DNA from: an uncultured Bacilli bacterium
GTDB lineage: Bacteria > Bacillota_I > Bacilli_A > RF39 > UBA660
Assembly (NCBI GenBank): GCA_934102215.1
Contig: CAKOSH010000003.1
Coordinates: 59,187-123,186, forward strand
Length of the DNA stretch: 64,000 nucleotides
Direction: 5' to 3'
Shown: in pieces, positions 655-31,003 of the stretch
How the letters are laid out: every line of letters starts with the position of its first letter
Position numbering within the stretch: position 1 is the stretch's first letter
Position numbers and translations under genes: made by a program
Notes under the pieces: model-generated
What the model was told of the DNA's origin: nothing
The model's database searches: none
Seen by the model: only the letters and a program-made list of their open reading frames with translations

Positions 655-1125
655 CTAATTATTAAATATAAATTCAGGAAGTAAAGTTCCTATAAATAAA
701 AGTATTACTAGAACTATCCAGTTAGTTAAAATATTCATAACCTTACTAAATGTATCATTATTATAAACCATCTTGCCATATACATTTTGAAGATTATATT
801 CATTAAGTACTCCATTATCATCTTTAACATATATATTGTATTTGTCTACTTTTTCTACTTTTCCAAGCTTTGTTGTATTTGTATATTTATATACTACATA
901 ATCATTCACATCTATTGCTTTTGTTTCTTTAAGTATAATAATATTATTCTTTTTGATATCTGGTTCATAAATATCACTATCTACTTTAATATACGTATAG
1001 CCTAATACGGTTGGAAACATATCATTATAAACTTTTCTTTTTGTATACATTGATACCATTATTGCAGTGAATGCTACTAAATATATAATTATTAATATTC
1101 TAATTACATTTAATATATTTTTCAT
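655..1125 (-). CDS. Membrane protein with signal-peptidase I (SipW/ER-type) architecture but non-canonical catalytic positions
   Basis: N-terminal TM, about 100 aa extracytoplasmic region, C-terminal TM. Segments align by eye to S26 boxes: SDIYEP vs SGSMEP, NNIIILKE vs GDLILVK, KDDNG vs KGDNN; the nucleophile Ser position reads Ile. Overlaps the secA start by 4 nt (ATGA). Confidence 0.35.
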   Translation of the reverse strand: MKNILNVIRILIIIYLVAFTAIMVSMYTKRKVYNDMFPTVLGYTYIKVDSDIYEPDIKKNNIIILKETKAIDVNDYVVYKYTNTTKLGKVEKVDKYNIYVKDDNGVLNEYNLQNVYGKMVYNNDTFSKVMNILTNWIVLVILLFIGTLLPEFIFNN

Positions 1126-3668
1126 TTTAAATACATTCCGCCTTCCAATTTAGGATCTATTGTTTTACCAAATTTTAAATCAGGATTAGTCGCATATAAT
1201 AAGAAATCTGCTTGTATTTTCGGATTTAGATTTATAAATTCAGTATTAGCTGCATGTTCATATTCTTTAAATGGATCCATTCCTGATAATGTATAATATG
1301 ATGTTTGTTTCTTTATATCTTCTAATTTATCTAAATGGTCTATCCAATAAGAATCAACTACATTTAACATATTCTTTCTTACTTTTTCATTATTATCTTC
1401 ACGAGATATACTTCCTTTTATTTTTGAAAGTACAAGTGAATTTATTGATTCTCTTAAACTTTCTTTACTTGTAGTATCTAGTCCTTTAGTATCAATTATT
1501 CCATCTAAACTACTACTTATTTCATCAAGTGAACAATTATTTACTAAGTAATCAGTATATGATGGAACTATTCTATCAAATAATGTTTTAACTTCTTTTG
1601 TATCAAGAATCATGTTACGTTGATTATACATTAAATCTTTTTGAGTAGTCATTACTTTACCATATTTTTCACTTGTAATTCTTACTTTTTCTTCAAATCC
1701 TTCTTGTGCTTTTTGACATCTATCTACTAGTTTAATTATATTTTTATTAGTGATTTCTTTGTCTTTATCTTTAACAAGAGAAGATGCTGCATTAAATAGT
1801 TCTTCGCTTCCTCTTGTTTTAACTAAATCATCTTCAAGTGAACTATAATATTTTGTTTTACCTGGTTCTCCTTGTCTACTTGCTCTACCACGAAGTTGAT
1901 AATCAATTCTTTCATTATTATTTCTTGATGTACCAATTACATAAAGACCTCCTAGTTCACGAACTCCTTCGCCTAGTCTTATATTACTACCACGACCAGC
2001 CATATTAGTAGCAACAGTTACTTTACCTTTCATACCAGCATTTTCAATAATACCAGCTTCATTTTCATTGTTAACTGCATTTAATAATTGATGTCTTACT
2101 CCTGCTTCTTCAAGCATTTTACTTATGATAACACTTTCTTCTACACTTGTTGTACCAATTAATACAGGTTGTAATGTTTCATTTGCTTTTAATACTTCTT
2201 CAACAATTGCTTTATATTTAGCATTCTTAGTAAGATAAACGCTTCCCTTTAAATCTTTTCTTATATTAGGAAGTCTACTTGGTACTTCATATGTAGGTAA
2301 ATTATATATCTCATTAAATTCTTCAATATTACTAGTACCTGTCATACCACTTATACCACTTTTATATCTTGACATAAAGTCTGGATATGTACATGTTGCA
2401 GTAGTAACTGTTGGACTTTGTATTGCTACATGATAACTTTTACCTTTTGAAAGTAACTCTTCTTTTGCTTCAAGTGCTTCATGTATACCATGGCCTTTTC
2501 TTCTTCCTGGCATAAGTCTTCCTGTACTTTCATCTATTAAAACTATTTCTTTACGAGGTTTCTTTCCAGGTTTTACTGGAACACTACTAAGGACATAATG
2601 TTCACCATTCTTATAATAGAATTTAGCAAGAATACAATTTTCTACTGCAACAGTGAAATTCATAAGATTTTCTTGTTCTTCTAAACTAAGTTTAGATACA
2701 TCTTTATTACCATATATTTTTCTATATAACTTTTCGCTAAATATTACTCTTTGGCTATCTTGATATAACAAACAATCTTCTTTGAATCTTATTTCTTTTT
2801 TCTTATCAAGCTCATCTTGCGGTTCTATTTTACATGTAAGAGTATCAGCAAGTAACATTGCTTTTCGATACATTTCTCTATTAAGCTCATTTCTTCTTTT
2901 GAATTCTTCTTCTCCAATATCGCTCTTCTTTTGACCTGGATATCCTCCATTTATAATAAGAGGTACAGTCGCATCATCTAAAAGAATACTATCAACTTCA
3001 TCTATAATCGCATAGTTAAATGCTTTACCATAGTTTTTATCATGTTTATCTGGTAAATTAAATACTCTGTCTTCTTTTTTAGTAACAGTATTATCAAGTA
3101 AATAATCAAATGCTAAAGTTTTAGCAGTACCATAAACTATATCACTCTTATATATTTCACGTCTTTCATCACGAGTCATTTTATCATTACCATAAACTAC
3201 TCCTGAAGTAAGTCCTAATAAATCATAAACAGGTTTTGTTTCTTCAAGATCTCTTCCAATAAGATAATCATTTGCTGTAATAACATGCACACCTTTTCCA
3301 TCTAAGGCATTTAAATATGCTTCAATTATTTGAATGAATGTTTTGCCTTCACCAGTTTTAACTTCAGCAATCGCACCTTCCCTCATCGCAAGAGCAGCTT
3401 CAATCTGAACATCATAAAGGCTTACACCAATAGCCCTTTCAGTTGCAAGATAACATAAAGCAGTAGCCTCTATTAATTTATCATCAACAGTACTTTTACC
3501 ACTTCTTATCTCATTCATTAAACTGATGCTTCTTCTTTTAATTTCAGCAGATGTTATATTACTTTCTTTGTAAGAATTAACTCTATTTTTAACTTCTCTA
3601 ACAAGTTCTCTAATTCTTTTTTGATTATTTCTTGTATAACTACCAAATATCTTATCTGTTAAACTCAT
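1122..3668 (-). CDS. secA: Preprotein translocase ATPase SecA (848 aa, lacks C-terminal Cys-rich zinc-finger tail)
   Basis: DEAD-like motor motifs (KTGEGKT, DEVDSILLDD), full-length SecA similarity. C-terminus ends ...KLEGGMYLK without a CxCxSGKKYKxCHG motif. RBS AGGTGA before ATG. Confidence 0.9.
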   Translation of the reverse strand: MSLTDKIFGSYTRNNQKRIRELVREVKNRVNSYKESNITSAEIKRRSISLMNEIRSGKSTVDDKLIEATALCYLATERAIGVSLYDVQIEAALAMREGAIAEVKTGEGKTFIQIIEAYLNALDGKGVHVITANDYLIGRDLEETKPVYDLLGLTSGVVYGNDKMTRDERREIYKSDIVYGTAKTLAFDYLLDNTVTKKEDRVFNLPDKHDKNYGKAFNYAIIDEVDSILLDDATVPLIINGGYPGQKKSDIGEEEFKRRNELNREMYRKAMLLADTLTCKIEPQDELDKKKEIRFKEDCLLYQDSQRVIFSEKLYRKIYGNKDVSKLSLEEQENLMNFTVAVENCILAKFYYKNGEHYVLSSVPVKPGKKPRKEIVLIDESTGRLMPGRRKGHGIHEALEAKEELLSKGKSYHVAIQSPTVTTATCTYPDFMSRYKSGISGMTGTSNIEEFNEIYNLPTYEVPSRLPNIRKDLKGSVYLTKNAKYKAIVEEVLKANETLQPVLIGTTSVEESVIISKMLEEAGVRHQLLNAVNNENEAGIIENAGMKGKVTVATNMAGRGSNIRLGEGVRELGGLYVIGTSRNNNERIDYQLRGRASRQGEPGKTKYYSSLEDDLVKTRGSEELFNAASSLVKDKDKEITNKNIIKLVDRCQKAQEGFEEKVRITSEKYGKVMTTQKDLMYNQRNMILDTKEVKTLFDRIVPSYTDYLVNNCSLDEISSSLDGIIDTKGLDTTSKESLRESINSLVLSKIKGSISREDNNEKVRKNMLNVVDSYWIDHLDKLEDIKKQTSYYTLSGMDPFKEYEHAANTEFINLNPKIQADFLLYATNPDLKFGKTIDPKLEGGMYLK

Positions 3669-3779
3669 ATGATCACCTATTTTCTATATAAATAATATCA
3701 TTTTAAGCAACATTTTTCAATAAAAATTGAATTTTAGTATACAATCATAATGATTGACTGAAATAGAAATTTAAATAAA

Positions 3780-5420
3780 TCAATTAGTTTTTAAAGTAAA
3801 GTATCCAGGGCTACTTGTGCCTCCATCTATACGAGCATATTCTTTATCGATATGATTAGCATCATATTTGGTTCCTGCACCGCCTACTAGGTTTGTACTA
3901 TCTTCAAACATACTAGTACTTTTAGTGGCCTTATTAGTATTAAATTTATCACTAGCATATATTGTTTTTAAATTAGCTGAATTATAAAACATACCACTCA
4001 TATATATTACATTGCTTGTATCAAAATTACTTAAATCTAAAAATGAAACTTGACTTTCTCTAAACATGCTAGTCATATCAGTTACATTTTTTGTATCAAA
4101 ACTGCTTAAATTTATTGTTGTTGCCTTACTTTCCCAAAACATTCCATTCATGTTTGTTACATTGCTTGTATCAAAGCTCCTTAAATCTAGCGTTGTAGCT
4201 CTACTAGCATAAAACATCATTCTCATATTTATTACTTTACTTGTATCAAAATTACTTAAATCTATTAATGTTACTTGACTACTTCCAAACATAAAATTCA
4301 TACTAGTTACATTACTGGTGTTAAAATTGTTTAAATCTAAAGATGAAACTTGGCTACCATAAAACATATAATCCATAGAGGTTACATTGCTAGTATCAAA
4401 ATTGCTTAAATTTAAAGATGCAGCCTGACTCTCATAAAACATTAATTCCATAGTGACTACATTGCTCGTATCAAAACTGCCTAAATCTAATATTGTCGCT
4501 TGGCTTTCTCTAAACATACCACTCATATTTGTTACATTGCTAGTATCAAAACTGCCTAAATCTAATATTGTCGCTTGGCTTTCCCAAAACATACCACTCA
4601 TATTTGTTACATTGCTAGTATCAAAACTGCTTAAATCTATTGTTGCAGCCCGACTTTCTTCAAACATATAACTCATAGACACAATAGGCATATTATTTAT
4701 ATATGTACATAACTTGCTTGTTACTGCATTAGTGCTTACTTCGTTAGTTAATTGAACTCCCCAACCAGTAGTCGCAATATTTTGCCAACCTGACGCACTG
4801 CCTTCTTGCATATATCTATAAGTGTATTGCCCATTTACATACTCTGCACCCTGTGTAAGATCGCCATCATATGTACAATATACAGGATTAATTGATGATT
4901 CATTTAAGCCAAGTTTTCCTTTAAATGCTTTATTTTTGTTATAATTTTGAAGCTTACCTGTATCAATAAATGTTATTTTGATTGTGTATTCTTGTGTATA
5001 ACCGGGTTTTATTGGAACATTTGTTAAAATTTTTCCTTCTTTAACTACTTTTTGCGATACTGAACTACATGTTCCATCTTCTGTGTTACTTGAATTCAAA
5101 TTTTTACATGTTCCTTCAATAACAAGTTCATTATTCGTAATTTCATTTACAAGTTCTTGCCACATAAGATTATAAATTACTTGTTTTGTTCCAGTGTTCT
5201 TTACTGATATTGTTTTAGTTATTGAGTCCCCTGGCATTGCTCCATCAAGTGATACTTCATTATCATCAGTAAATACTAATTCTAAATCACCTGTTGTTAT
5301 CTTGTTATATTTAGCAGTATCGTTTCCAATTATATTAAGCGAAAAAAATGCTAGTGAAACTCCAATTACTGCGAATAGTATTGATATCACTAGCAATATA
5401 TACATTTTCTTATCTTTCAT
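3780..5420 (-). CDS. Secreted protein: TasA/CalY(camelysin)-like N-terminal domain with SipW-cognate-type signal region fused to about 9 DUF285 (Mycoplasma-type, BspA-like) 26-aa repeats
   Basis: N-terminus LAFFSLNIIGNDTAKYNKITTGDLELVFTD..PGDSITKTISVKNTGT resembles TasA/CalY (AFFSD..AGTLDL..PGD..N.GSL). C-terminal half has repeats L(D/N)LSxFDTSNVTNMSGMFxESQ. ORF track starts at GTG (5429); ATG at 5418-5420 with AAGGAAG RBS preferred. Confidence 0.8.
   Translation of the reverse strand: MKDKKMYILLVISILFAVIGVSLAFFSLNIIGNDTAKYNKITTGDLELVFTDDNEVSLDGAMPGDSITKTISVKNTGTKQVIYNLMWQELVNEITNNELVIEGTCKNLNSSNTEDGTCSSVSQKVVKEGKILTNVPIKPGYTQEYTIKITFIDTGKLQNYNKNKAFKGKLGLNESSINPVYCTYDGDLTQGAEYVNGQYTYRYMQEGSASGWQNIATTGWGVQLTNEVSTNAVTSKLCTYINNMPIVSMSYMFEESRAATIDLSSFDTSNVTNMSGMFWESQATILDLGSFDTSNVTNMSGMFRESQATILDLGSFDTSNVVTMELMFYESQAASLNLSNFDTSNVTSMDYMFYGSQVSSLDLNNFNTSNVTSMNFMFGSSQVTLIDLSNFDTSKVINMRMMFYASRATTLDLRSFDTSNVTNMNGMFWESKATTINLSSFDTKNVTDMTSMFRESQVSFLDLSNFDTSNVIYMSGMFYNSANLKTIYASDKFNTNKATKSTSMFEDSTNLVGGAGTKYDANHIDKEYARIDGGTSSPGYFTLKTN
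3930..4640 (-). repeat. Array of about nine 78-bp (26-codon) tandem repeats encoding DUF285 units; two adjacent units nearly identical at DNA level
   Basis: Near-identical 78-bp units around 4489-4566 and 4567-4644. The spurious plus-strand ORF 4453..4671 shows the same periodicity (LLVSKLPKSNIVAWLS x3). Confidence 0.8.
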
Positions 5421-5442
5421 AATGATCACACTTCCTTATCTT

Positions 5443-5482
5443 ATGATCATTATAGCAAATATTACCCCCCCCGCAAGCAAAC
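5443..5482 (-). promoter_or_regulatory. Conserved promoter cassette with G8 homopolymer in spacer (minus strand: TTGCTTGC-GGGGGGGG-TAATATT-TGCTATAAT)
   Basis: Extended -10 TGCTATAAT at 5449-5457, poly-C (plus strand) 5465-5472, TTGCTT -35-like box immediately upstream. Same cassette found upstream of two paralogous genes. Confidence 0.6.
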
Positions 5483-5499
5483 ATTTGTTCTTGTTTACC

Positions 5500-6438
5500 T
5501 TAATCTATTCTTCTACCAACAACAACCATTAGTTTTCCTTGGTGTTTTCCAAATAGGCATGTTTGAAGAACTATTATTTTATCATCCTGATTTAATTCTA
5601 CATCTGTCTTATAAATACTTCTATTTTTTAATCTATTGAAATGTTTTAACCAATCACTATCTTTTTTATATTTTAATTTCATATGTTCTTCTGTACCCAC
5701 TTTATCAGCAAGAACTATACTAAATATTTCATATTTTAAAGTCTCATTGTCAATCTTTAATTCAATGATTCTATGTTCATCAAAATATTCTTTCTTTAAA
5801 TAACCCTCTAATGTTTTAAATGGTGGATTATATTTTTTATTACTATGATTATGTCCGTATATATTAATCTGTTTACTATCTTTACTAACTCTATAATCCA
5901 TAAATGTACTTCCAATAGCACTTCTCTTTTTACTTAATGAATATTTTAAATAATATTGGTTATCTTTAGTTTAAACTACTGGAGTATATATTTCATCATC
6001 AATACTTAAAATTCCAATAACATCATTATTATTGTATTTTTTCTTTAAATCATTTATTTCTTCTTCTACTGTTTTCTTTGGAACTTCTATATCTGAAGCA
6101 GGTTTAACTAATTTACTTTCATTAATTTCTATTATTGTTTTTTCTTCTTCTTTTCTCTTTTGAATTAACAATACAAAACTAACTACCACTATTATAGATA
6201 AAATAACTATTAATATATTAAATATAAGATTTCTTTTGTTATCTTTTTTAATATCTTTTGAATTAGTTTTCTTTGTTGATTTATTATTTACTTTACTACT
6301 AGAAACTCTCTTTGCTGAACTTGCTTTTGTTTTGTTATTTGTTATCTTCTTTGCTGAAGATACTTTTGCTTTATTACTTGTAGTTTTCCTTAATGTAGTT
6401 ACTTTCTTAGTAGTATTATTCTTTTTATTATTTGTCAA
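5500..6438 (-). pseudogene. srtB: Sortase B (class B sortase) with an in-frame TAA stop at 5971-5973 replacing the Gln of the conserved PVVQGKDNEYY motif
   Basis: ORFs 5971..6438 and 5500..5901 are in the same frame separated only by TAA. Read-through gives ...IYTPVV*TKDNQYYLKYSL..GSTFMDYR..IYGHNH...LQTC...RR, matching SrtB signature blocks (DYPVVQGKDNEYYL, GSIFMDYR, TLxTC, Arg). Confidence 0.75.
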
Positions 6439-6445
6439 TCACACC

Positions 6446-9331
6446 TCACATTTGAAACATGCCATATACTATTAACTGATATGATTCATCCCTTTTTTCT
6501 ACTTTAGCATTAACTTTATATACTTTATTTTTATTAAGTTCAGTAACTTTTAATAAGGCATCACTAAACATTACGGCCTCTATACTTCCATACTCATCAC
6601 TAAATTTCAAGAAACACATATTATCATTATTACGTGTTTTTATCATTCTAGTATCTTCTAAAAATAATATAAGACTTATTACTTTATTATAATATTTAGA
6701 TATATCATCTAATTTAACATAGCCTTCTCTTATATATTTAGTAACAGGATGTCTTGATAAATAGAATCCATAATTATTTATTTCATTATCAATAGTTTCA
6801 ATAGAATCATAATCATCTATATCATTAACTATAGGAGCATTATCCATAACAACACCTAAATCTTTACATAACATAGCATAATTAATTATTTCATCTAATA
6901 TTTCTATTGTAGCTTTCTTATTAATACCAAAACTATCAAAAGCGCCACATAATATTAATGATATAACTACTCTTTTATTAATATTTTTACTATAACATCT
7001 TATCATGAAGTCATTAAATGATTTAAATTCACCTTTACTTCTTTCTCTTAATATATCTTCACTTACTATATTAGATATATTTTTTATTGAATTAAATGGT
7101 AATACAAGATAATTATTATATATTACAAATTCTTTATCACTTCTATTTATATCTACTTTTAAGAAACGTATTCCTAGTTTCTTAGATTCTTCAATATAAT
7201 CTTTTATCTTATCACTAGATATATTCATATTAAGTAAATTTCTCATGAAATATTTAGTATAATTACTCTTTAGATAAGCCATTTGATATGCGACTAATGA
7301 ATACACTACTGAATGTGATTTATTAAATCCATATGAAGAGAACTTTATAATTAAATCATATAATTCATTTCCTATTTTTTCATCATAACCATGTTCTATA
7401 ACACCACTTATAAATTTAGATTTATTTTTCTCTATTACATCTGCTTTCTTTTTAGACATTGCTCTTCTTATAAGGTCTGCTTCTGCATAAGTATATCCAC
7501 CAATTATTCTTAATATTTCAAGTACTTGCTCTTGATAAATAATAATACCATATGTACTTCTAAGTATTGGTTCTAATTCTTTTACTAAGTATGTTACTTT
7601 CTTTTTACCTTCTTTTCTTAATATATATTCCCCTATCATATCTCTAGGACCAGGTCTATATAAAGCAATCGCATCAACTAAAGTATTAAAATTATCTACT
7701 TTAAGTTGTCTTAAGAAATTTTTCATACCACTGCTTTCAAATTGAAATATACCAGTAGTATAAGCATTCTTAAATAGATTCAATGTATTTATATCATTAA
7801 GTGGTATATTATTTAAATCAATATTAATATTATCTTTCTTTATATCATTTACTATATTAGATATAGTATTAAGATTCTTTATAGATAAGAAATCCATCTT
7901 TAGAAGTCCTAAAGATTCAATATATTCCATACTATAACCTGTAAGTATAACATTATTGCTTTTATATAAAGGCATAAAATTATAAAGAGATACATCACTT
8001 ATAACAACACCAGCAGTATGCATACTTGTATTCTTTTTAAGACCACATAATTTATAACAACAATTCACTAAATACTTGATATTATTATTTTTATTTATTA
8101 AATTCATAAATGATTTATTATCTTGAAGTGATATAAAATCTTTCTCATTATTAATAGTTTTACATATATTATCTATAACAATATTCTCATATTTTAAAAC
8201 ACGGCCCATATCTCTTATTATTTGTTTAGGTAACATTGTATTAAATGATATAATTCTAGCAGTCTTATCGTGGCCATATTTATTACTTACATATTCAATT
8301 ACATCATCTCTTTTAGTATTATCAAAATCTATATCTATATCAGGCATAGTAATTCTATCAGGATTTAAAAATCTTTCAAATATAAGATTATACTTTAAAG
8401 GATCTACATTTATTATACCTAAACTATAATTAACTAAAGAAGCAGCACCACTTCCTCTACCAGGACCTACATATATATTATGCTTTTTAGCATATAAAAC
8501 AAAATCATAAACTATTAAGAAATAGTCTACAAAGTTCATCTTTTCTATTACTGATAATTCATACATAAGTCTATTTTTATATATATCAGGTACATTATTA
8601 TTAAGTCTTTTCTCTAGCCCCTTTTTAGCGAGTGCTTTTAAGAAGGATAATGAATTATCATTATATACTGGTATATGTAATTCTTTACTTGGTGGTTCTA
8701 TATCTATGAGACTTGCAAATTCTATTGTTGTATTAGTATCACTTTCACTTATATTTAATCTAAAATTACTATCATATATATTTATTTTATCATCAATAGT
8801 TTTACCTTCATCAATATATTTTAAGTATTTAAAAGTCTCTTTATCTTCTTCATTAAAATATCTTATAAGGTCCATATATACTATATTATCAGTTAATTTT
8901 AATGCTTCTTCTTTTAATTTAGATGTATGGTATTTAATATAAACATTATCAAAATATTTACTTACTAGAGGATAATGTTTTCCATTTGTAACAATTATTA
9001 AATCACTTGAATTATCTTTTATATAATCTATATCAATATTATCTTCTATATTTTTATGAGATACTATTTTAAATAAATTAATAAGTCCATTATAGTTTTT
9101 GGCATACATAAGCATATACATATCATTAACTATTATTTCTGCTCCTATAATAGGTTTTATATTGTTTTTATTACATTCATTAATGAATTCCATTGTTCCA
9201 AACATATTAGGATCTGTTATACCAAGTGCATATATTTCTTTCTTTAATGCAAAAGAAATAAGATCTTTTATTCTTATTAAACTATTCATTAAATCATATT
9301 CAGTTTTTATATTTAGTGGTATATATCTCAT
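6446..9331 (-). CDS. dnaE: DNA polymerase III alpha subunit, DnaE-type (short, about 960 aa form)
   Basis: PHP domain N-terminus, polymerase core motif GPGRGSGAASLVNYSLGI..DIDIDF. Start probably Met5 (GAGGGAAG RBS); ORF track begins 12 nt upstream. Confidence 0.85.
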   Translation of the reverse strand: MRYIPLNIKTEYDLMNSLIRIKDLISFALKKEIYALGITDPNMFGTMEFINECNKNNIKPIIGAEIIVNDMYMLMYAKNYNGLINLFKIVSHKNIEDNIDIDYIKDNSSDLIIVTNGKHYPLVSKYFDNVYIKYHTSKLKEEALKLTDNIVYMDLIRYFNEEDKETFKYLKYIDEGKTIDDKINIYDSNFRLNISESDTNTTIEFASLIDIEPPSKELHIPVYNDNSLSFLKALAKKGLEKRLNNNVPDIYKNRLMYELSVIEKMNFVDYFLIVYDFVLYAKKHNIYVGPGRGSGAASLVNYSLGIINVDPLKYNLIFERFLNPDRITMPDIDIDFDNTKRDDVIEYVSNKYGHDKTARIISFNTMLPKQIIRDMGRVLKYENIVIDNICKTINNEKDFISLQDNKSFMNLINKNNNIKYLVNCCYKLCGLKKNTSMHTAGVVISDVSLYNFMPLYKSNNVILTGYSMEYIESLGLLKMDFLSIKNLNTISNIVNDIKKDNINIDLNNIPLNDINTLNLFKNAYTTGIFQFESSGMKNFLRQLKVDNFNTLVDAIALYRPGPRDMIGEYILRKEGKKKVTYLVKELEPILRSTYGIIIYQEQVLEILRIIGGYTYAEADLIRRAMSKKKADVIEKNKSKFISGVIEHGYDEKIGNELYDLIIKFSSYGFNKSHSVVYSLVAYQMAYLKSNYTKYFMRNLLNMNISSDKIKDYIEESKKLGIRFLKVDINRSDKEFVIYNNYLVLPFNSIKNISNIVSEDILRERSKGEFKSFNDFMIRCYSKNINKRVVISLILCGAFDSFGINKKATIEILDEIINYAMLCKDLGVVMDNAPIVNDIDDYDSIETIDNEINNYGFYLSRHPVTKYIREGYVKLDDISKYYNKVISLILFLEDTRMIKTRNNDNMCFLKFSDEYGSIEAVMFSDALLKVTELNKNKVYKVNAKVEKRDESYQLIVYGMFQM

Positions 9332-9390
9332 TTCTTCCCTCAATTTAATTATACAATATTTAATACAAAAGAAAAAGTAGGAAGTCCTAC

Positions 9391-29668: not shown

Positions 29669-31003
29669 TTAGCCGATGCGGAAAGCTGGCGCAACGCCAC
29701 ATGTAGAATAAGCATCAATATTAGAACCGCCACCATTATTATTCACTTTAAAGAAAGATTTTTCACTGATAGACACAGCCGAACGAAGGCACCATGATGA
29801 AGTACTAGTTCTATTATTTTTTATCGCTCCATTAAAATTAGTTGTAGTTACGCCTAAATTTTTATAGTAATCTAATTGTTTTGTTATATCTCTTGCTTTA
29901 TCATATTTAAATCCAAATTTCTCTGGTTCTGTAACACTAACCAATGGTGAAACTGTTAACTTAGAAATTGATTCATTCATACTATTGGAACTTGATACTA
30001 CATCTGCCCTTACTTCTGCTGTGCTTAATAAATATAATTTATCTGTTGATGTAAAGTTTGTTGTGTCTTCGCTTCCAGGTCCTGATACTACTGTTGTATC
30101 TATTATTGCATTCTTTATTTCACTTGGTATTACATTATATATATCATTATTTACAAATGTTCTCATTGTTGTTGCTGGCCAGCCATCCTTATTCCAACCA
30201 TAATTATATTGTGTTCCATTATATTCTCCACTTGGATTCATATTATGTGTTGTTATGATATTTGCAAATTCTAGTACAAATCCACATGCTGTTTGTGAAA
30301 AACCTGTTGTACTACATTCACTTGGTGTTGAAGTATTTGCTACGCGAAGTGTATGTGTTCCATATGTTCCAAGATTTACTTCTTTTGTACTTCCAACTTT
30401 ATACTCACTTCCATACCCAGCTTTTACATTTGCTATAATTGTTGACCAACTATCAGTTGCAAAATCAGGAGCCTTATATTCTTCAATGCCAAGTACACCA
30501 TTGAATTGTTTACCTTGATTATAATTTTGGTCTGCATTTATTTCTTTAAATAATATTGTAAATGTATATTTATGAGTAATTCCTGATTCTATTGATATTT
30601 TCTTTGCGATTGTCATATCACTAATTGGTGATTGTGATATAGATTCACATGTTCCTTCAACTGTACCTGATGCATTTAATCTTTGACATGTCGCGCTTAA
30701 AACAAGTTCATCATTTGTAATTCCATTTGTTAGTGATTGCCAAATAACATTGTAATATGCATCTAATGTACCATTATTTTTTACTGATACTTCTTTTGTT
30801 GTTGACCATCCTGGTTTTATATATTGTGCATTTATTGCTGGTCCATCAGTATATGTAAGTTTTAGTGTTCCAGCTTCCACTATTACATCTTTTGCATTAT
30901 CATTTCCTTTTACAGCAGTACTAAAGTACGCATAAGAAAGACCTGTTGTTAAAAGCAATAACAATACAAGAAACGTTCCAATTAAAATTTTGTTATCTTT
31001 CAT
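29669..31003 (-). CDS. Secreted protein: TasA/CalY-like N-terminal domain plus Cys/Trp-rich C-terminal domain ending ...GVAPAFRIG (paralog of 10456..11682)
   Basis: LSYAYFSTAVKGNDNAKDVIVEAGTLKLTYTD..KPGWSTTKEVSVKNNGTLD N-domain; C-terminal blocks GFSQTACGFVLEFANIITTHNMN, GWPATTMRTFVNNDIYN, KLYLLSTAEV, QLDYYKNLGVTT shared with 10456..11682. Confidence 0.75.
   Translation of the reverse strand: MKDNKILIGTFLVLLLLLTTGLSYAYFSTAVKGNDNAKDVIVEAGTLKLTYTDGPAINAQYIKPGWSTTKEVSVKNNGTLDAYYNVIWQSLTNGITNDELVLSATCQRLNASGTVEGTCESISQSPISDMTIAKKISIESGITHKYTFTILFKEINADQNYNQGKQFNGVLGIEEYKAPDFATDSWSTIIANVKAGYGSEYKVGSTKEVNLGTYGTHTLRVANTSTPSECSTTGFSQTACGFVLEFANIITTHNMNPSGEYNGTQYNYGWNKDGWPATTMRTFVNNDIYNVIPSEIKNAIIDTTVVSGPGSEDTTNFTSTDKLYLLSTAEVRADVVSSSNSMNESISKLTVSPLVSVTEPEKFGFKYDKARDITKQLDYYKNLGVTTTNFNGAIKNNRTSTSSWCLRSAVSISEKSFFKVNNNGGGSNIDAYSTCGVAPAFRIG

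Follow-up and report, generated by a model that had tools for sequence, protein, structure and literature searches.

A probable recent nonsense allele of an accessory class-B-type sortase gene in the dnaE-secA surface-protein island of an uncultured gut Bacilli bacterium

The class B sortase of C. difficile, SrtB, recognises (S/P)PXTG, and the second sortase gene of C. difficile 630 is a pseudogene: an in-frame stop precedes its catalytic cysteine, and the gene is absent from other lineages (PMC4155245). The locus described here brings together a sortase comparable to the first of these and a lesion comparable to that of the second. It belongs to an uncultured, 25%-GC gut Bacilli bacterium, described as "Mollicutes-like", and lies between dnaE and secA in a 64-kb stretch of DNA (the window, by which the whole of the stretch that was analysed is meant). 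What is found there is very probably a genuine nonsense allele that became fixed recently; the gene encodes an accessory class-B-type sortase and lies in a surface-protein island that varies from strain to strain. It is an instance of ordinary ongoing gene loss and a known kind of pseudogene.

The interrupted reading frame and its neighbours

Read on the minus strand, the sortase gene (Table 1) runs over 313 codons in one frame, which only codon 156, a stop, interrupts, in the context IDDEIYTPVV-(stop)-TKDNQYYLKYS. The original prediction had started from two ORFs in the same frame, separated only by a TAA and placed directly between dnaE and a surface-protein gene. The analysis recovers both the split and the placement, and adds that the interrupted gene, like its two neighbours, is on the minus strand. 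When the stop is read as Gln, the product is a membrane-anchored class-B-type sortase of 312 aa. Its match to an intact homologue of 313 aa (P0001; 96% identity, E=7e-176) spans the break; such a match of the frame to intact proteins across the break is far beyond chance. A homologue search with the read-through protein returned ~260 relatives, nearly all of them intact and 250-365 aa long. In the protein alignment the column of the stop holds Gln in all close relatives and Lys in more distant ones, and the in-frame stop is restricted to alleles that are 99.8-100% identical; this is the outcome of the comparison with orthologous srtB genes that had been proposed as a check, divergent orthologues being free of the stop. 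At the level of DNA, the window has GTT TAA ACT where the nearest intact alleles have GTT CAA ACT, GTG CAA ACT or GTA CAA GCT (CAA at this codon is found in L014, which is 94.8% identical in nucleotide sequence, in L011 and in L015). One C-to-T transition turned the CAA of Gln156 into TAA, just as the original prediction had it. (Slipped-strand phase variation at the stop was also considered and is ruled out: the site, GTTTAAAC, has no repeat.)

What can such an allele still produce? The 5' ORF holds an N-terminal tail (residues 1-70), the membrane anchor (71-92), a linker helix and, of the beta strands, only beta-1 and beta-2; it begins with TTG where relatives have ATG (GATATG having become GATTG). 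The catalytic His196 and Cys294 are both encoded downstream of the stop. Since translation ends after tail, anchor and two beta strands, and since His196 and Cys294 lie beyond, in an ORF that provides no export signal, the TAA allele should yield no active enzyme.

Table 1. The sortase gene of the window, its parts and its neighbours (positions of the window)
Feature	Position	Strand	Remarks
dnaE	6446-9343	-	Upstream flank of the variable island
Class-B-type sortase pseudogene	5500-6438	-	312 sense codons, one internal TAA, terminal TAA at 5500-5502; from translation and profiles
5' ORF, 155 codons	5974-6438 (5971-6438 with stop)	-	TTG start at 6436-6438
Premature TAA, codon 156	5971-5973	-	In place of Gln (CAA) of PVVQ, in strand beta-2
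3' ORF, 133 codons from first ATG	5500-5901	-	His196 (codon 5851-5853), Cys294 of LQTC (5557-5559), Lys302 (5533-5535); signal peptide and membrane anchor both absent
G8 tract (C8 on the plus strand)	5465-5472	-	Between TTGCTT and extended -10 TGCTATAAT; upstream of the DUF285 gene
-10 hexamer TATAAT	5449-5454		Upstream of the DUF285 gene
DUF285/PARCEL-repeat surface protein	3780-5429	-	N-terminal SipW-type signal-anchor region; no C-terminal sorting signal
Spacer DUF285-secA, 111 bp	3669-3779		A relative (L073) has a 603-aa MucBP gene at this position
secA	1122-3668	-	Downstream flank of the variable island

The order of genes in the window is dnaE-sortase(TAA)-DUF285-SecA. In the family, the order SepF-DivIVA-(DUF285)-dnaE-sortase, followed by one to three genes on the opposite strand and then by SecA, is conserved, and the DUF285 gene of the window occupies the position at which, or beside which, relatives carry sortase substrates. 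The nearest species-representative genome is that of Clostridium sp. CAG:524, with a sortase that is 86% identical in protein sequence and a dnaE that is 95% identical in DNA; the other relatives, MAGs that go under the labels Bacilli, Mollicutes, Mycoplasmatota or Tenericutes, come in many cases from the human gut (for example, the Hadza set). The window encodes FtsW, MraY and a class A PBP, from which it follows that the organism is walled and that anchoring by a sortase is, accordingly, meaningful in this lineage. Relatives also have SpoIVA, located just past orf156, downstream of secA (L075 12228-13703); the corresponding end of the window, 1-650, runs off the end of the stretch. These gene contents suggest that a "Mollicutes-like" low-GC lineage may have kept sporulation genes as well as its cell wall.

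Several observations concern the surface-protein genes themselves. The G8 module upstream of the DUF285 gene precedes both DUF285 genes of L073 too (L073 919 and 7925). Length variation of the tract was not seen, every contig that spans it having G8, and several short assemblies (L007-L009, L014) end at the tract or just past it. A promoter and terminator scan of 3600-6700 found no terminator after the sortase gene, and the simple rule that was used missed the G8 promoter. The DUF285 protein differs by one PARCEL repeat of 75 nt (25 aa) between otherwise identical strains, being 546 aa long in one form and 521 aa in the other (comparison with L003 and L006; the difference is located at ~4500-4750 of the window): repeat copy number varies. 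Elsewhere in the window, two paralogous secreted proteins (10456-11739 and 29669-31003, minus strand) combine a camelysin/SipW-type N-terminus with DUF6273. The gene at 10456-11739 is absent from a sister lineage, in which GlyRS is directly followed by SepF (L075), and is consequently a strain-variable surface gene.

The sortase family, its missing arginine and its substrates

The read-through protein scores below the curated thresholds of the profiles that recognise it: 123.6 bits (7.5e-36) with TIGR03064 (class B sortase), for which the cutoff is 153.75, and 26.1 bits with Pfam Sortase PF04203, just under the cutoff of 26.6. By these scores the clade is a divergent one. A profile search against solved structures found C. 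difficile SrtB (5GYJ/4UX7) as the best match, with E ~1e-30, and further matches to the SrtBs of B. anthracis, C. perfringens, L. monocytogenes and S. aureus, down to 1e-22; one homologue (P0103) is named "class B sortase" by one source. The AF2 model of the intact P0001 has a pLDDT of ~80-90 in its catalytic domain. When this model was compared with the PDB by Foldseek, each of the top 19 matches was to a class B sortase (E 8.9e-16 for the best; TM-score on target 0.61-0.76), so that the class B fold is found in the model of the intact allele, short as the sequence falls of the curated HMM threshold. Profile, alignment and the fold of the intact allele agree in this, and the gene can be called, as it originally was, an interrupted class-B-type sortase. 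Membership in class B (MEROPS C60B) is backed by fold, by His and Cys, by the membrane anchor (hydrophobic residues 71-92, a long helix in the model) and by the linkage to substrates in relatives; the transpeptidase activity of the intact form is a prediction from sequence and model.

The blocks of the sortase domain that can be recognised in the read-through protein are PVVQ (153-156), FMDYR, YGHNH with His196, and LQTC with Cys294. His196 (YGHNH) and Cys294 (VLQTC) are invariant across 52 homologues. The original prediction had listed "all signature blocks", a catalytic Arg included. It was right about PVVQ, FMDYR, His and LQTC, and wrong about the Arg, which is missing from the entire clade: Arg217 of C. 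difficile SrtB stands opposite Leu303 in the HMMER alignment; the residue eight positions beyond Cys294 is Lys302, followed by Leu303, and this Lys-Leu pair is invariant in the subfamily. In the model of the intact allele the last beta strand starts at Lys302. Related clades have Tyr, Phe or Thr at the Arg site, and clostridial SrtBs retrieved by the same search have DDAR or DSR. The absence of the canonical Arg from this clade of gut-Bacilli sortases was noted over loci L021-L067 (the Lys302-Leu303 codons are at 5533-5538 of the window); the cysteine motif of the clade is LQTC, not TLxTC. Going by the alignments, the missing Arg is a clade-wide property and the only unusual feature here. It is not to be taken as a sign of decay, because it is shared by the whole clade, in genes that are under selection: intact members that lack the canonical Arg are under purifying selection and adjoin substrates. 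On sortases that have Lys where the catalytic Arg would stand, a search of the literature turned up nothing specific; if it is confirmed, the loss throughout a clade of what passes for a "universal" sortase Arg could interest enzymologists.

Another feature of the family is the N-terminal tail. In the window protein it comprises residues 1-70 (encoded within 5974-6438) and is K/N/T/S-rich, highly basic and cytoplasmic; among relatives its length ranges from near nothing to ~150 residues, and it evolves fast (alignment columns 1-115). To our knowledge, no function has been described for a sortase tail of this kind.

What would the intact enzyme anchor? In relatives, one to three substrates are encoded beside the sortase. 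They are secreted proteins of 500-1500 aa, and their C-termini consist of an xPxTG signal, a membrane span and a K/R (KKK) tail, that is, they are classical cell-wall sorting signals (those found in relatives are ...GGTGGDDPDFPRTG, FPRTG, FPKTG, FPITG, VPNTG, VPETG, IPYTG, PPMTG and PPKTG). Proteins with sorting signals adjoin the sortase in 29 of the 51 related loci. One case is L073, with a sortase that is 79% identical: its MucBP protein of 603 aa, encoded on the opposite strand between DUF285 and secA, ends with DDPDFPITG, a membrane span and KKRFM, and the gene is missing from the window. A scan for a C-terminal hydrophobic segment together with the motif found no sorting-signal ORF among the 110 ORFs of the 64-kb window, and a tblastn search of the window with 13 substrate proteins from relatives found no match. 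Linked substrates are, then, a property of the relatives, and none is found within the 64 kb, though the rest of the genome may encode some. This also settles an observation that had been made about the surface proteins, namely that none has an NPxTx signal: the window does lack sorting signals of any kind, but NPxTx was the wrong motif to look for, since it is xPxTG that the substrates of relatives carry.

Loss of the gene and competing readings of the lesion

Other members of the species complex have lost the gene independently and in other ways. Loci L015-L020, in which the end of dnaE is 97-98% identical to that of the window, carry a different sortase allele with an AAA-to-TAA and a GAA-to-TAA change, and this allele has also lost its stop codon and undergone a Gly-to-Arg change. 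In 52 contigs of a close sister lineage, which between them carry four variants of secA from the 90% cluster to which the window belongs, dnaE is followed by 505 bp and then by secA; sortase and DUF285 gene are gone, and only ~21 nt of the sortase 5' end are left. (The ~400 bp that replace the two genes, at L075 8496-9000 and likewise in L076-L087, contain …ACFSEILRQLEYKSKF…YYPSSQT…, which we take to be a degraded TnpB (IS605 OrfB) remnant.) One species complex thereby presents a loss series: an intact gene, a gene with a single TAA, a gene with two other TAAs, and complete deletion beside an IS605-type remnant. The sortase is dispensable, and accessory, in this complex; that each step of the loss can be seen across it makes surface anchoring by this enzyme an accessory matter there.

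Selection on the gene was gauged with Nei-Gojobori estimates of omega, computed from the membrane anchor to the C-terminus. Omega is 0.32 for the intact L011 against the older, two-TAA L015, and 0.06-0.14 among other pairs; the intact alleles are under strong purifying selection. Between the window and the intact L014, 13 changes are synonymous and 4 are non-synonymous (omega 0.06, a value that mostly represents history before the lesion), with few changes in the TAA lineage itself, in which Y194C and A-to-G changes occur as rare variants. Decay is apparently visible in the broken alleles, variants of which are changed at residues that are invariant in the family (Y194C, P205L, D181N, P153L). 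Because intact alleles are so strongly constrained, and because the window is so close to L014, the lesion should be recent. Recent inactivation was one of three options that had been offered for the stop; it is the one that the reproducible TAA (see below), the other losses and omega all favour. Intact L014, L011, L021 and L072 have the same DUF285 promoter region downstream of a sortase gene under strong purifying selection, which implies either that substrates persist in those genomes or that the enzyme has another role; the statement that no substrates are left would hold for the window lineage only.

The course of events can be pictured as follows. With the downstream substrate genes missing at the locus, selection on the window sortase would have been relaxed: the enzyme would have been left without a job there and would already have been redundant in the window lineage before it was hit. 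A C-to-T change replaced Gln156 (CAA) by TAA, and translation now stops after residue 155. In isolation, one more bacterial pseudogene carries little weight, and the value of this one is practical and illustrative: 1) the locus should be annotated as a sortase pseudogene, rather than as two hypothetical proteins or as an assembly error; 2) public metagenomes show each step in the loss of a sortase-substrate island from one uncultured gut species complex.

Was the loss merely tolerated, or was it favoured? The window and L002 have zero differences over a tract of ~2.75 kb (~6250-3500) that takes in the broken sortase, the DUF285 gene and the start of secA, while in the same L002 contig dnaE, on one flank, is 3.5% different (at 95 sites, most of them within 6500-8750) and the secA flank diverges as well. 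Sortase alleles within the species have a dS of ~0.4, to be compared with ~2% in DNA for dnaE. That sortase alleles are so much more divergent than dnaE, and that the tract shared with L002 is identical, implies that the island recombines, and suggests that recombination may have spread the TAA allele. (P0129, another sortase sequence, is an intragenic mosaic of two alleles.) The null allele may have been selected, or may have hitch-hiked with its DUF285 allele, rather than having decayed neutrally. A more definite version holds that the null and the adjacent DUF285 allele are advantageous, for example because they alter the cell surface that host immunity or phages see, and that homologous recombination, not neutral drift, has spread them. 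We regard this as unlikely. The identical tract between diverged dnaE and secA flanks agrees with it, but that tract may have been carried along with the DUF285 gene, or it may be dnaE that recombined; loss of the gene at least three times in the complex agrees with it, but is just as well explained if a gene without use decays neutrally; and the presence of the TAA allele on 19+ public contigs, against 2 for the nearest intact 313-aa alleles, is a ratio of contig counts, which are not population frequencies.

A still wider proposal would combine two parts: (a) that these genes represent an unrecognised subclass of Arg-less sortases in uncultured gut Bacilli; and (b) that TAA null/DUF285 alleles are spreading by advantage. 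That both should be true has, in our judgment, only a small chance. If (a) were true, a sortase would work without the canonical Arg (with Lys, Tyr or Phe in its stead, and with LQTC), would carry a long K/S/T-rich tail and would anchor adhesin-like proteins by way of [F/V/I/P]PxTG signals. If (b) were true, losing sortase-anchored adhesins would be an advantage in the gut, and recombination between strains would be what spreads the alleles.

Neutral or selected, inactivation is the preferred reading of the stop. Programmed read-through, in which TAA is decoded (for example as Gln) and the cell regulates how much full-length sortase it makes, is very improbable. Two facts might seem to invite it: the stop falls exactly where a Gln codon is conserved and is a single step away from CAA, and the frame beyond it remains open, with hardly any change from the intact L014. 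An open downstream frame is, though, to be expected anyway after a recent lesion, and the usage of stops in the window speaks against read-through. TAA is the commonest terminator there (39 of 57 long ORFs end with it). No other interrupted gene was found in the 64-kb window, the four other same-frame pairs of adjacent ORFs that were inspected being separate genes with starts of their own (phosphoesterase and lipoprotein; two lipoproteins; Lon and LysM protein; GlyRS and DUF6273 protein); the rest of the window is densely coding, and leftover gaps hold normal small ORFs. UAA is the stop codon that is terminated most efficiently in bacteria, and no tRNA gene, hence no suppressor tRNA, was found in the 64-kb window. 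Nor do the relatives look like carriers of a regulatory stop: it is confined to one allele, none of the 250+ homologues that are more divergent has it, sister alleles have either been deleted or carry their stops at Lys and Glu codons instead, and broken-allele variants are changed at invariant residues. The suggestion of a regulated or suppressible stop is accordingly set aside. (The same stop usage and the same four ORF pairs rule out a change of the genetic code with reassignment of TAA.)

Sequencing error was the last of the three options. The exact 133-aa downstream product (P0121) is recorded on 19 contigs. The 155+133 split between dnaE and the DUF285 gene was encountered in ten places, from at least 10 samples, in assemblies built by MEGAHIT, SPAdes and Logan, and the DNA over the gene in 10 independent contigs is 99.8-100% identical to the window, with the same base at the stop. 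(An exact look-up of the 155-aa 5' product, with one query sequence, returned no match; gene callers do call the ORF.) That the true codon is CAA and the gene intact has next to no chance of being right: a single-base substitution is a plausible mistake in one draft MAG, but here an identical TAA was assembled from at least 10 independently sequenced samples by three pipelines, with the gene DNA nearly invariant across samples and gene callers agreeing on the split, so that the lesion is not an assembly artefact. Equally negligible is the proposition that an active split sortase assembles from a membrane fragment of 155 aa and a catalytic fragment of 133 aa: each ORF is intact, and gene callers report both in every assembly, but the 3' ORF begins at Met180 and so omits residues 157-179 (from the last part of beta-2 up to the strand with FMDYR), its product has no signal peptide or anchor and would remain in the cytoplasm, away from lipid II and substrates, a consensus promoter before it was not found in the scan of 3600-6700 (the best match, at 5875-5848, is 9 of 12), and no relative is organised in two pieces.

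Comparison with described sortases

How the genuine nonsense allele and its family fit among sortases already described can be stated in three comparisons. With the SrtBs of S. aureus and B. anthracis they share the class B fold, the PV(V/L)Q...DN and FMD(Y/F)R blocks and the N-terminal anchor. Those enzymes act on NPQTN/NPKTG in Isd haem-uptake anchoring; the window family, in contrast, has no isd context, the substrates encoded beside it resemble adhesins (MucBP or beta-helix proteins) and carry xPxTG, and the canonical Arg is absent.

The likeness to C. difficile SrtB (CD630_27180; 4UX7, 5GYJ) extends further, to the class B fold, the membrane anchor, the His, the Cys in xxTC and the nature of the substrates, those of the relatives having xPxTG, a membrane span and a basic tail where C. 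difficile SrtB has (S/P)PXTG. The two are nevertheless only ~30% identical. LQTC replaces TLxTC/LSTC, and the equivalent of Arg217 is missing (Lys302-Leu303 in the window family, Tyr or Phe in neighbouring clades); the window family has an N-terminal tail of 70-150 aa, rich in K/S/T; and the copy in the window is broken by TAA.

For the lesion itself, the closest precedent comes from C. difficile 630, whose second sortase gene likewise has its in-frame stop upstream of the catalytic cysteine. The organism and the gene copy are different, and the window's allele is one of a series that can be traced across public metagenomes.
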